Shown: piece after piece, positions 15,531-19,172 of the stretch
Position numbering within the stretch: the stretch's first letter is position 1
Layout of the letters: each line of letters starts with the position of its first letter
Notes under the pieces: model-generated
Told to the model about the DNA's origin: nothing
What the model saw: the letters and a program-made list of their open reading frames with translations, nothing else
Databases searched by the model: none
NCBI GenBank assembly: GCA_003151515.1
Contig: PLXS01000037.1
Location: forward strand, 71,978 to 135,977
Origin: Opitutaceae bacterium
Lineage (GTDB): Bacteria; Verrucomicrobiota; Verrucomicrobiia; Opitutales; Opitutaceae
Direction of reading: 5' to 3'
DNA: 64,000 nt
Translations under genes and position numbers: made by a program

Positions 15531-16472
15531 TCAGACCTTTCCCGCGGCAGAGCGAGCGATTTGATAGAGGTAGCCGCAGCAGCGCCACGCCCGAACGAGA
15601 GCGCGCTTGGCGGAGCCCGAGCGCAGGACCAGGGCCGAGCCGAGCGCGAGCAGCAGGAACCCCGCGAGCTTGAGCAGGCTCCCCGCTGCCCGCGAGGCAA
15701 GGTAGGTGGCCGCCGAGCCGTCCACGCGCAGCGCGCGACTGCGGTCGGCGACGCGCGAGCGGGCCGAGTCGAACGCGTGGCGGGCCGCATACCTGAAGGT
15801 GAGGCGGCCGCTTGGGATCTGGTGGAGCACCCTCGCTTCGGGGACGAACCACACCTCCAGCCCCGCGGAGCGGATGCGCCTGATCATCTCGCTGTCACCG
15901 CCGCCGAAAAGGCTCGCGCCCTTGCGGTCCAGATGCGTGTCGAACAGCCCGAATCTCTCGAACACCCATTTGGGGAAGGCGAAGTTTGCGCCCATCGGCG
16001 CCTGGCCGGCGCCGAGCGCGCCGGCCTTGCTCCTGAAGGCCAGGGGACCGTGCGATCCCTCGAGCCACGCGGGAATCCCGTCCGGGAACACGGGGACCAC
16101 CTCGCCTCCGGCAACCCCGATGCGGCGTGCGCCATCGCCCGCAAGCGGCGCGACAAGGGCTCCAAGCCAGCCGGCTTCGGCCAGGATGTCGTCGTCGGCA
16201 AGAACCAGAATGTCGCCTTTGGATTCGGCCACAGCCCGGTTTCGACCGTGGTCGAGGCCCTGGCGCGTCTCGAGGACGCGGCGGGGAGTGGGCGCGGCTC
16301 CCGAGAACGACGCAATCACCTCCGCCGTGTCGTCGGTCGAATTGTTGTCAATGACGAGGAGCTCCCAGCGATCCGCTGGGAAGGCCTGCCGTGTGACCGT
16401 CGCAAGGGTCTCCCGCAGGAACCGCGAGCGGTTGAAGGTGACAATGGCGACGGTTACGAACGGGTTTGGCAT
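15531..16472 (-). CDS. glycosyltransferase family 2
   Basis: The internal ATG at 16472 gives 'MPNPFVTVAIVTFNRSRFL...VIDNNSTDDT...LADDD'. The longer ORF start adds a non-GT leader. Confidence 0.8.
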   Translation of the reverse strand: MPNPFVTVAIVTFNRSRFLRETLATVTRQAFPADRWELLVIDNNSTDDTAEVIASFSGAAPTPRRVLETRQGLDHGRNRAVAESKGDILVLADDDILAEAGWLGALVAPLAGDGARRIGVAGGEVVPVFPDGIPAWLEGSHGPLAFRSKAGALGAGQAPMGANFAFPKWVFERFGLFDTHLDRKGASLFGGGDSEMIRRIRSAGLEVWFVPEARVLHQIPSGRLTFRYAARHAFDSARSRVADRSRALRVDGSAATYLASRAAGSLLKLAGFLLLALGSALVLRSGSAKRALVRAWRCCGYLYQIARSAAGKV

Positions 16473-16571
16473 CAATGGGTCGGCGCAGTCGGATGTGTCT
16501 TCAAACTGATAACCAACGAGTTGCAATAAACCAAGCCCTAATGCGAAAAAAACTCTGGACGGCCGCGCCGA

Positions 16572-16716
16572 GCCTTCCATGATTCGACCCGCATCAGGAA
16601 CGAGCCGGCCCTAAGAAGCCGGTTCCGCCAACCGGGCCGGGAGCGGCCACGGTGGATCGGGCGAAAGCCCGGATGTGCGAGGCCGAAAGGCTTCGAACCT
16701 AAACGCTCCCGAAGGC
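16572..16716 (+). ncRNA. unclassified structured RNA element (riboswitch-like leader or small RNA)
   Basis: Outer helix 16572-16577/16711-16716. Hairpin 16602-16609/16618-16625. Seven-bp helix 16639-16645/16704-16710 encloses two GAAA-tetraloop hairpins (16658-16671 and 16679-16694). A terminator follows 3 nt downstream. Confidence 0.4.
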
Positions 16717-16719
16717 GAT

Positions 16720-16752
16720 GACCGACCTGATGCCAGGTCGGTCTTTTGCTTT
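16720..16752 (+). terminator. rho-independent terminator
   Basis: A perfect 10-bp stem, GACCGACCTG (16720-16729) with CAGGTCGGTC (16734-16743), has a 4-nt loop and is followed by TTTTGCTTT. No + strand CDS lies upstream to terminate. Confidence 0.75.
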
Positions 16753-16795
16753 CAGCCCTGCTGCGCGATTCAATCCACAAAGATCATCACGCACC

Positions 16796-17020
16796 ATGAC
16801 AAGCACAGCCGAACACACCGGAATCCGCATTGCCGCTGACAATCCGAACCACCACCTGTGGAACAACCACGGGACCTGGTTCCTGCACTACACCGTCCAT
16901 CCGACACCCTTCACCAAGGAGCGGATCCGCAGGTCCCTGGGCACCAAGGATATCAGTGTTGCCCGCACACGCCGGGATACCTTTTTCTCCCATCTGTTCG
17001 CCAAGCAGGCGGCCGCCTGA
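16796..17020 (+). CDS. small protein resembling the N-terminal arm of a tyrosine integrase (possible gene remnant)
   Basis: 74 aa from the ATG at 16796. 'GTWFLHYTV...KERIRRSLGTKDISVARTRRD' resembles integrase N-termini, but no catalytic domain follows. Confidence 0.4.
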   Translation: MTSTAEHTGIRIAADNPNHHLWNNHGTWFLHYTVHPTPFTKERIRRSLGTKDISVARTRRDTFFSHLFAKQAAA

Positions 17021-18232
17021 TCAGCGCAGGGCCGGGCTGGCGGCCGCGCCCACGGGCCGGTCGAAGGCGACCATGATCTCGGACCCAACGGAGTCCGCGA
17101 GCAGCCGCCCCTTTGGCAGGAGCCGCACCCGGGACCCGTCCTGGCGCGCCATCCCCTCCTCAACGAGGCGCCCGACGAGCGCCTCGACCCTCGCCCATTG
17201 GGCGTCCGGGCAGCGGGCCTTGACCGGCACCAGGTCCACGCCGGCGTTCATCCTGAGGCCGAAAACGAGCGCATCCTCGGCGAGCAGCGCTTGCGTGAGC
17301 TCGCAGACATCCTCGGTCGCCCGCAGGCCCCGGCCGACGCGCTCCGCCCACAGGCCCAGGTCCGCGACGTTCGAACCCCTGCGGCCGCGGTGCTGGGACG
17401 CGGCCGACGGGCCGAGCCCCACCCATTCGCACATCATCCAGGTGTTCAGGTTGTGCGCACAGGCGTGGCCCTCGCGGGCGAAGTTCGAGACCTCGTACTG
17501 GGCATAGCCGGCCGCGCCCAGCCTCTCCCACGTGCGCTCGTACATCCGGGCCTCGTTCTCGGGGTCAAGCCGCACGCGGCCCTGGGATAGCTTGACCCAC
17601 AGCGCCGTGTCCTCCTCGAACGTCAAGCAGTAGGTCGAGATGTGGTCGGGCGCCAGCGAGACGGCCTCGTCTATGTCGTCCTCCCACTCCGACTCGCTCT
17701 GCCCGGGCAGCGCGAACATCAGGTCAAGGTTCACACTCGCGAAGCCCGCGGATCTGACCCGCTCGTAGGCGCGGTACGCCTGGTCGCGCGTGTGCGCCCT
17801 TCCCAGGGCCTCGAGGAGGGCGGGCCGGAAGCTCTGGACCCCGAGCGAGATCCGCGTCACCCCCGCGGCCTTGAGCACCCCGAGGCGGGCATCGGTCACC
17901 GACGCCGGCGCGAGCTCCACCGTCCACTCCGCGGGGGACGCCCCACCGGGGATCGCGTGAACGACCTCGGCAAGGCGCCCGAGGTCGCGCGGGGAGAGCA
18001 GTCCAGGCGTCCCGCCGCCCCAGAAGACGGTCGACAGGGGCCGCTCCCAGCCAACGAGGGCGGACTCGGCCCGCGCGCACTGTATGAAGCCCCTTATCGT
18101 GTCGGCGGTCGGCTTGACCTGGTAAAAGGCGCAGAAGTCGCAGGTGCTCGCGCAGAACGGCACATGGACATAGAGGCCGAGCGCACCGGCGTCCTCAGCT
18201 TTGGCTTGCTCCTCCATGGTGACACGCGTCAT
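17021..18232 (-). CDS. hemW: radical SAM family heme chaperone HemW / oxygen-independent coproporphyrinogen-III oxidase-like
   Basis: Radical-SAM motif 'YVHVPFCASTCDFCAFY' is present. The start is probably 18232 or 18217. The 487-aa ORF start would overrun the divergent lipoprotein gene. Confidence 0.85.
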   Translation of the reverse strand: MTRVTMEEQAKAEDAGALGLYVHVPFCASTCDFCAFYQVKPTADTIRGFIQCARAESALVGWERPLSTVFWGGGTPGLLSPRDLGRLAEVVHAIPGGASPAEWTVELAPASVTDARLGVLKAAGVTRISLGVQSFRPALLEALGRAHTRDQAYRAYERVRSAGFASVNLDLMFALPGQSESEWEDDIDEAVSLAPDHISTYCLTFEEDTALWVKLSQGRVRLDPENEARMYERTWERLGAAGYAQYEVSNFAREGHACAHNLNTWMMCEWVGLGPSAASQHRGRRGSNVADLGLWAERVGRGLRATEDVCELTQALLAEDALVFGLRMNAGVDLVPVKARCPDAQWARVEALVGRLVEEGMARQDGSRVRLLPKGRLLADSVGSEIMVAFDRPVGAAASPALR

Positions 18233-18245
18233 TAATAGCGCCGAA

Positions 18246-19172
18246 ATGGACCTCAAACGACTCTCACTCGCGAGAAAATTAATCCCGCTGTCGGGCGCAA
18301 CAGCCGCCTTGGCGGCACTCTGCGGCTGCACGGCCGTGGCGCTCACCAACATGACGCCCTCCTCGCTTCCGGAGAATCCTTCGGGGATATATACCTTCAC
18401 CCTCCGCGTGGCGCCGAAGTCCGCCTCGGTGATCCCCGACAGCATCACGCCGCGCATCGTCGTCGGCGCGCAGAGCCACGACATGCGCCGAAGCGACGTC
18501 TCGACCGAGATCTACGAGTACGACTACAAGCTTCCGTCGTTCCAGAACGACATCGCCTACTACTACCTCGTGAGCTACAATACGGGGGGCACCCTCGTCA
18601 CCAACTCCCACCAGGCGTACACCGATCTGACCCACACCGCGATCGTGAGCCGCTACGTCATCTCGCTCGAGGTGAACCGCGGCCCCGTCGGCGCCAGGAT
18701 CGGGATCCTCGGGCGCGGCTTCTCGCCCCAGGACACGGTGGGCTTTGACGGAACGCCGGTGCGCACGGTCTACGAGTCCCCGACGTCCCTTGGGTTCTTT
18801 GTCCCGCCGCTCGCGCCGGGGCGCACCTACAAGGTCACGATCGCGGGCGCCGCGGGCAACTCCGTGGTGGGCTCGTTCAGGATCGACACGAGCGACGTAT
18901 CCGTGGAGCCGGCCTCGCTGGCCCTCGCCCCGGGCCAGAAGCTGACCCTCACCTTCACCGTGCCCAACCCCGCCCCCTCCGGAGGACTTCTCCTCGACAT
19001 CACCACCGACATCCCCGAGAGCGTGATCATGCCCGAGGTCGTCGTCCCGGCTGGGCAGACGTCGGTCGCGGTCTCGGTCGAGGGCGGAAAGCCCGGCTCC
19101 GGCAGCCTCTTCCTCAAGGGCTACGGCACCGGCGAGGTCACGATACCTGTGACCGTTTCGGGCTCTAAGTGA
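18246..19172 (+). CDS. lipoprotein with IPT/TIG-like beta domain
   Basis: The ATG at 18246 gives 'MDLKRLSLARKLIPLSGATAALAALCGC' with a lipobox. 'GPVGARIGILGRGFSPQDTVGFDGTPV' is IPT/TIG-like. Only 13-28 nt separate it from the hemW start. Confidence 0.65.
   Translation: MDLKRLSLARKLIPLSGATAALAALCGCTAVALTNMTPSSLPENPSGIYTFTLRVAPKSASVIPDSITPRIVVGAQSHDMRRSDVSTEIYEYDYKLPSFQNDIAYYYLVSYNTGGTLVTNSHQAYTDLTHTAIVSRYVISLEVNRGPVGARIGILGRGFSPQDTVGFDGTPVRTVYESPTSLGFFVPPLAPGRTYKVTIAGAAGNSVVGSFRIDTSDVSVEPASLALAPGQKLTLTFTVPNPAPSGGLLLDITTDIPESVIMPEVVVPAGQTSVAVSVEGGKPGSGSLFLKGYGTGEVTIPVTVSGSK

Follow-up and report, generated by a model that had tools for sequence, protein, structure and literature searches.

In this study, we propose that positions 16590-16752 (+) of the window, which is the whole 64,000-nucleotide stretch of Opitutaceae DNA that was analysed, encode a SAM-I/IV riboswitch of the SAM-I clan, lying in the 5' leader of the gene that starts at 16796 and acting as a SAM-triggered OFF switch, a reading to which we assign a probability of roughly 80%. 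The element is a further member of the SAM-I/IV class that scores below the curated threshold, and not a new RNA class. SAM is its predicted ligand, and the gene under its proposed control encodes a conserved miniprotein whose paralogues are joined to metK in four genera.

Identification of the leader RNA

The element occupies a gap of 321 nt between the start of a GT2 glycosyltransferase gene at 16472 (-) and that of the ORF at 16796 (+), in agreement with the preliminary description of this DNA, which had noted a non-coding gap between two divergent coding regions. That description had also suggested a riboswitch-like leader with a terminator platform for the ORF at 16796 (+), and this part of it holds, whereas the P1 and the nested topology that it had drawn are replaced by the pseudoknotted SAM-I/IV fold presented below. 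It had recognised no convincing known class. The covariance-model search against Rfam that it had recommended was run in this study, and it returned a full-length match to SAM-I/IV, with an architecture of the env87 type (PMC5393176).

At gathering thresholds, the Rfam scan of the window reported no family. In a permissive scan covering 4227 families, the sole notable match was SAM-I/IV (RF01725) at 16586-16711 (+). The alignment spans the full model (positions 1-99) and scores 32.6 bits (E 0.0027), against a gathering score of 41.1 bits. The deficit is due to P2, P4 and P5, whose length exceeds that expected by the model and which enter it as long insertions, the core being intact. Two homologues that precede members of the same miniprotein family exceed the gathering score with the same model (L116, 41.8 bits; L207, 44.9 bits). 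When 41 Opitutaceae genomes were searched with RF01725, matches were present in 14, only one of them above the gathering score. Two further covariance models, R1 and R2, were made in this analysis; R1 links the window element (149 bits) to L116 (36 bits, E 2.5e-6), and R2 gives L207 86.8 bits. Searches with RF00162 (SAM-I) and RF00634 (SAM-IV) found no match at the place of the window element in the genome. We also considered that the RNA might belong to a new class, or be a hybrid carrying an additional junction hairpin, and discarded this idea since the crystallised env87 SAM-I/IV RNA has the same P4 (PMC5393176, PMC6890682).

Fold and covariation of the aptamer

The predicted aptamer (16590-16710) would be a four-way junction of P1, P2, P3 and P4, with P5 following P1 and a 6-bp pseudoknot, PK-2, joining the loop of P3 to the 3' tail. 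The features of the locus are given below in window coordinates; the hairpin that we call P5 bears the name P4 in Rfam and in publications on SAM-IV.

16556-16561 (+): -35-like box TGGACG, with an A-rich tract before it; among 76 aligned relatives, CT.GAC (16555-16560) shows little or no variation
16578-16583 (+): -10-like box CATGAT; in the 76 relatives the A at position 2 is nearly invariant and the T at position 6 invariant
16590-16595 (+): P1 5' strand CGCAUC, pairing with 16672-16677; aligned to P1 of RF01725
16596-16601 (+): J1/2, AGGA(AC), the A-N-G-A junction of the SAM-binding core; aligned to the RF01725 consensus AAGA
16602-16625 (+): P2, an 8-bp hairpin with no internal loop; compensatory changes in 5-6 of 8 pairs
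16628-16655 (+): P3, with a CCAACC/GGUGG core, a bulged A and the loop that forms PK-2; aligned to P3 of RF01725
16639-16644 (+): PK-2 5' strand GGGAGC, in the P3 loop; complementary to 16705-16710
16658-16671 (+): P4, a 5-bp GNRA hairpin abutting the P1 3' strand; compensatory changes in 3-5 of 5 pairs
16672-16677 (+): P1 3' strand GAUGUG, the partner of 16590-16595; aligned to P1 of RF01725
16678-16695 (+): P5, a hairpin 3' of P1; compensatory changes in 4-7 of 7 pairs
16705-16710 (+): PK-2 3' strand GCUCCC, after an AAC...A-rich linker
16720-16752 (+): intrinsic terminator found by a terminator scan, with a 10-bp stem (hairpin 16720-16743), the loop AUGC and then UUUUGCUUU
16726-16733 (+): anti-P1 (antiterminator) segment CCUGAUGC, inside the 5' arm and loop of the terminator
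16757-16798 (+): part of the leader that contains another anti-P1-like box, CCUGCUGCGCGAU, together with the start-codon region, AUCACGCACCAUG; both boxes are conserved and can pair
16796-17020 (+): gene under the proposed control, a conserved miniprotein of 74 aa; the ORF is conserved in all relatives

The SAM-I-type binding core is present, that is, the A-U/U-A pairs of P1, the A-N-G-A of J1/2 and the CAACC...GGUG of P3, and it matches both the RF01725 consensus and env87. P1 pairs in 100% of the alignment cells, its variation being limited to C-G/U-G and G-U/A-U/G-C. J1/2 reads AAGA, ACGA or AUGA in relatives, and its second position, which is G in the window, A in the consensus and C in env87, is therefore a free one. 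In relatives, P2 is a continuous stem of 8-10 bp closed by a loop of 4-9 nt, GCGA and AUGG tetraloops included; the variability of this loop rules out a conserved loop pairing (PK-1), and P2 has neither an internal loop nor a kink-turn. The proximal part of P3 is invariant, as in the SAM clan, and two distal pairs covary in the broad set of sequences described below. PK-2 reads GGGAGC/GCUCCC in the window and GGGAGU/ACUCCC, AGGAGU/ACUCCU, ACGGGAU/AUCCCGU, GGAGA/UCUCC and GGGAAA/UUUCCC in relatives, which amounts to six kept pairs in total, and P4 varies in length through insertions.

Several of these helices had been noticed before. The 8-bp hairpin at 16602-16625 is present and corresponds to P2, as do the GAAA-capped hairpins at 16658-16671 and 16679-16694 to P4 and P5. 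The 7-bp helix described between GGGAGCG (16639-16645) and CGCTCCC (16704-16710) is indeed complementary, but it is not nested and stacked on an outer helix; it is the pseudoknot PK-2. That outer helix (16572-16577/16711-16716) does not withstand comparison, as it pairs in 51.5% of cells among 76 relatives and its 5' arm falls in the spacer of the putative promoter. We rejected it as the closing P1 since this arm lies upstream of the likely transcription start, between the -35-like and -10-like boxes. The true closing helix P1 (16590-16595/16672-16677) and P3 (16628-16655) had been missed. When the full leader was folded from 16588, the minimum-energy structure consisted of P1-P5 and the terminator (-91.0 kcal/mol). 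In the shuffled-control test, which had also been recommended, the + strand folds better than its shuffles (z = -4.65; 0 of 200 as good), and the many G-U pairs indicate that the + strand is the transcribed one.

The element was found in 22 of 24 genomes of the same genus, and in all 80 loci fetched via the protein, mostly from uncultured Opitutaceae of peat, soil and freshwater, the RNA lies about 45 nt upstream of the miniprotein gene. An analysis of covariation bears the fold out. A model-based alignment was made for a close set of 79 distinct sequences; pairing is kept in 98% of its cells, and double changes are seen at 12 pairs, these compensatory pairs belonging to P2 (5), P4 (3) and P5 (4); in a broad set of 29 sequences, double changes occur in 20 of 35 pairs, distal pairs of P3 included. 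None of 500 shuffles reached the observed level, and slid controls paired in 31-45% of cells. Within the 79-sequence set, P1 with its A-U/U-A pairs, proximal P3, PK-2, the A-N-G-A of J1/2 and CAACC...GGUG are invariant, and the invariance of P1, proximal P3 and PK-2 is as would be expected for a ligand pocket. Since P1, proximal P3 and the antiterminator are invariant in the Opitutaceae, their support comes from distant relatives and from homology.

Putative promoter and expression platform

The -35-like and -10-like boxes are separated by a spacer of 16 nt that is free to vary among the 76 relatives. Read as a -35/-10 pair, they would place the start of transcription on the first base of P1, at about 16590; a consensus promoter scan at a 9/12 threshold called no promoter at these boxes. 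The leader also contains an inverted repeat, GCGCGAT...ATCACGC, and a genome-wide search for it as an operator returned chance matches in coding DNA only.

Downstream of the aptamer, the perfect 10-bp terminator noted in the preliminary description is present at 16720-16743, followed by TTTTGCTTT, and in 76 relatives 99% of its cells pair and three of its pairs carry compensatory changes. The segment CCUGAUGC is a perfect 8-bp complement of GCAUCAGG (16591-16598), which lies in the P1 5' strand and J1/2, and the helix between them can form in 99.7% of cells. CCUGAUGC is kept in distant relatives that have different terminator stems. No such conservation would be expected of a loop that served termination alone, and the conserved CCUGAUGC thus supports an antiterminator. 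In the terminator-less relatives L122 and L116, J1/2 is changed and its complement changes too (GCAUCAAG/CUUGAUGC). In L124, which also lacks the terminator, J1/2 and its complement have likewise changed together, and GCAUCACGAG and CUCGUGGUGU form a 10-bp match, a length that 0 of 200 shuffles reached.

The predicted energies of the two folds depend on how far the transcript extends. When it is cut at 16733, the antiterminator fold is at -74.9 kcal/mol versus -66.3 kcal/mol for the P1 fold; in the complete leader, the terminator form (-91.0 kcal/mol) is the more stable one versus the antiterminator form (-76.2 kcal/mol), and the ON state therefore has to be kinetic. A terminator with a mutually exclusive 8-bp helix constitutes an expression platform, in which termination itself is predicted. 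According to the mechanism that we envisage, SAM bound between P1, J1/2 and P3 would lock the P1 5' strand, and with P1 locked the 10-bp hairpin and its U-tract would end transcription, leaving the gene OFF. When SAM is low, GCAUCAGG would pair with the emerging CCUGAUGC in the 5' arm and loop of the terminator; this pairing would block the terminator, so that the mRNA of the miniprotein could be completed and the gene would be ON. The element is likely a transcriptional OFF switch triggered by SAM, the direction of switching being the one that these competing pairings predict.

It is conceivable that the terminated RNA of about 160 nt works as a trans-acting small RNA, instead of or besides control in cis. 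Some Listeria SAM riboswitch transcripts have been reported to act in this way, and with the ligand present, a strong, conserved terminator would yield a short RNA of defined length. However, the protein gene that accompanies the element is always the same, its distance and orientation being fixed, and in relatives without the terminator both aptamer and gene are retained, with a start-codon hairpin in place of the terminator. We consider a function in trans improbable.

With the SAM-I/IV riboswitch as the preferred reading, a second layer of control may be discernible at the start codon. In the window, the hairpin formed by CCUGCUGCGCGAU and AUCACGCACCAUG is a weak one (-8.4 kcal/mol, z -0.9), and its equivalent is strong in relatives (L061, -14 kcal/mol, z -4.7; L116, -20 kcal/mol). 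In L116, the strong start-codon hairpin of this terminator-less locus has an alternative pairing with the P1 5' strand. A start-codon hairpin of the L116 type would be a translational switch, and that of the window may represent a second layer of control that is decaying or auxiliary.

The miniprotein family and its distribution

Differences among relatives of the ORF amount to 0.125/0.045/0.417 by codon position and are concentrated at third positions; the ORF is therefore coding. Within the terminator stem, at 16718, lies an in-frame ATG from which an ORF of 100 aa (16718-17020) can be read, and several database entries of 99-102 aa in this family were probably called from an ATG of this kind. 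Conservation supports the start at 16796, not the one at 16718, and extension to such an ATG gives spurious proteins of 99-101 aa in some gene calls.

The family comprises 1182 clusters at 90% identity, all of them named "hypothetical", and 966 clusters at 50% identity. Among its best 150 relatives, every protein stands alone (68-159 aa), without fusion to a recombinase. AlphaFold predicts a strand-strand-strand-helix fold (mean pLDDT 75); a search of the PDB with the predicted structure gave no fold match at E < 0.5, and a profile search of PDB sequences gave no match. The window protein scores 21.1 bits against DUF6538 (PF20172), below the gathering score of 27, and 32 aligned members all match this domain weakly and below threshold (best E 3.5e-5). 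We examined whether the ORF could be the scar of an integrase or integrated element and rejected this, as the ORF is under purifying selection, is found in hundreds of genomes and is always a stand-alone small protein. Judging from its conservation, the miniprotein is a real small protein and not an integrase remnant.

Members of the family are found in 225 of 401 sampled Opitutaceae genomes and, among 401 Verrucomicrobiota genomes of high quality, in 70. The record of Opitutus sp. ER46 also lists the family, and two metagenome-assembled genomes bear the species label Opitutus sp. GAS368. With a broader model, 20 loci from other Verrucomicrobiota families were searched, and the aptamer was detected upstream of the miniprotein in 10 of them, the pair being present in f18, f34, f36, f39, f41, f55, f57, f60 and f81, and three loci from other families score 39.6-44.9 bits with Rfam's own model. 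No detectable SAM-I/IV element precedes the miniprotein loci of f21 and f64 (L205, L206, L208, L210, L212-L214 and L219-L221). The genomes of f21 measure 2-3 Mb, and 30 of 31 of them carry the miniprotein. Up to 5-6 miniprotein paralogues occur in some genomes.

No conserved gene neighbourhood was found among the related loci beyond the RNA-miniprotein pair, the neighbours hemW, GT2, sucD and mtnA being each confined to a subset of loci. In the window, the gene for a HemW-type radical-SAM heme chaperone (17021-18484 (-); TIGR00539, 227 bits) is convergent with the miniprotein ORF and ends where that ORF ends. This neighbour is common to only about 18 related loci, and a SAM connection through HemW is therefore probably coincidental. 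At L097:3-1250 and in about 13-16 related loci, a gene that resembles mtnA by eye immediately precedes the riboswitch in the same orientation. Its product would be MtnA, which we take to be the methylthioribose-1-phosphate isomerase of methionine salvage; the arrangement could reflect synteny at the level of a clade and not a functional link.

Genomic association with metK

A second, more divergent copy of the module occurs in some Opitutaceae. In four genera (genomes G198, G213, G238 and G274), a SAM-I/IV element is followed by a paralogue of 84-89 aa (counted from the first Met) and then by metK, and in all four the stop of the paralogue overlaps the metK start. The elements of G198 (L122) and G213 score 39.4 and 31.3 bits, respectively, with RF01725. 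The metK genes were identified by all three SAM-synthetase Pfam domains in two of them and by GHPDK and GAGDQG motifs in the others. This overlap between paralogue and metK behind a SAM-I/IV element ties the module to SAM metabolism. In the genome from which the window was taken, the element is single-copy, and metK lies elsewhere without an element. Searches of this genome (92% complete) for SAM-I, SAM-IV, SAM-II and SAM-VI found no other riboswitch; SAM/SAH and SAH searches were empty too, and these are weak negatives, as 0 of 14 control genomes gave a signal.

The metK linkage also bears on the identity of the ligand. The same SAM-clan fold might recognise another molecule, for example S-adenosylhomocysteine or a SAM-related metabolite, which would explain the atypical downstream gene; this gene is not a classical methionine gene, and J1/2 reads AGGA, not the commoner AAGA. 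However, the variable position of J1/2 differs in the SAM-binding env87 too (ACGA; PMC5393176), the remaining pocket positions are unchanged, and in relatives with the canonical AAGAG the gene that follows encodes a paralogue of this protein, with metK as well in the four genera, all of which makes a different ligand quite improbable. It is very improbable that the leader serves not as a metabolite sensor but as an autoregulatory site to which the miniprotein, or another protein, binds: the weak resemblance of the miniprotein to an integrase N-terminal domain (DUF6538) means that it could bind nucleic acid, but in structure the RNA is homologous throughout to a validated metabolite-binding aptamer and retains an intact pocket, and the miniprotein family exists without the RNA in two families.

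A separate conserved element is associated with metK itself. An AT-rich box, CATCAC(A/T)AAAT..GATATGTTGATAT, lies 56-85 nt before the metK start (L157:1395-1440, G000:C8, of the genome that contains the window). Across the genus the core of this box does not vary, and the box can be recognised throughout the Opitutaceae. A related palindrome, ATATCAACA-N10-CGTTGATAT, is located before metF (G000:C41:59985-60020), just outside the window. The metK/metF box is probably the operator of a methionine-cycle regulator. We rejected the miniprotein as its binder, as the box is present upstream of metK in 5 of 5 Opitutaceae genomes without the miniprotein and in 5 of 5 with it.

Taking the leader as a SAM-I/IV riboswitch, we regard it as a reliable pointer to the function of the gene behind it, and the metK-coupled paralogues back this pointer; riboswitch and metK link together nominate a family of about 70-90 aa as a new player in SAM/methionine homeostasis. 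The element is the only SAM-class riboswitch detected in these genomes, and its sole target is the miniprotein family. Tentatively, and with more doubt than confidence, we suggest that the miniprotein may be an unrecognised SAM-homeostasis factor, either a small nucleic-acid-binding regulator or a partner of MetK, gated by the only SAM riboswitch detected in the genome. If this were so, Verrucomicrobiota would relay their SAM status via a riboswitch-controlled protein, not via riboswitches on each methionine gene, and the metK operon fusion in four genera would be the trace of a functional link. A literature search for a riboswitch-miniprotein module of this kind found nothing. With regard to annotation, a clade of Verrucomicrobiota SAM-I/IV riboswitches lies below the Rfam threshold and is absent from standard annotation.

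Relation to known SAM riboswitches

The SAM-I/IV class (RF01725) was described by Weinberg et al. (2010, PMC2864571), and its env87 member is known from a crystal structure (PDB 4L81; sequence in PMC5393176), with ACGA as J1/2 (PMC5393176). Pairing of the P3 loop with the 3' tail in a pseudoknot defines both SAM-IV and SAM-I/IV (PMC6890682; PMC2864571, Additional file 1), and SAM-I/IV is further defined by a P2 without internal loop or kink-turn and by the lack of PK-1 (PMC2864571, Additional file 1; PMC6890682). With SAM-IV (RF00634), known from cryo-EM (PMC6890682), the window element shares the core, PK-2 and the hairpin after P1. In contrast to the window element, SAM-IV has a split P2a/P2b and PK-1, and it is devoid of the junction hairpin P4.

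The resemblance to SAM-I (S-box, RF00162) lies in the same pocket nucleotides in P1, J1/2 and P3, in a four-way junction with P4 between P3 and P1, and in OFF control by a choice between terminator and antiterminator, which for the window element is proposed. Unlike SAM-I, the window element lacks the P2 kink-turn and PK-1 and has PK-2 and a hairpin after P1. The two also differ in the strand that is captured: the antiterminator of the window would use the P1 5' strand and J1/2, whereas the classical S-box antiterminator uses the P1 3' strand.

It is with SAM-I/IV that the agreement is most extensive. The order of P1, the A-N-G-A of J1/2, a plain P2 without PK-1 and a P3 with CAACC/GGUG and a bulged A is the same, and both carry a hairpin after P1. 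Moreover, the window element shares with env87 the 6-bp PK-2, the 5-bp GNRA hairpin abutting the P1 3' strand, the bulged A and the linker that begins with AAC (PMC5393176). It differs from the class in its target, which is a miniprotein and not an enzyme of methionine or SAM metabolism, and in its provenance, as SAM-I/IV was described mainly from marine metagenomes, whereas the clade presented here belongs to Verrucomicrobiota of soil, peat and freshwater.
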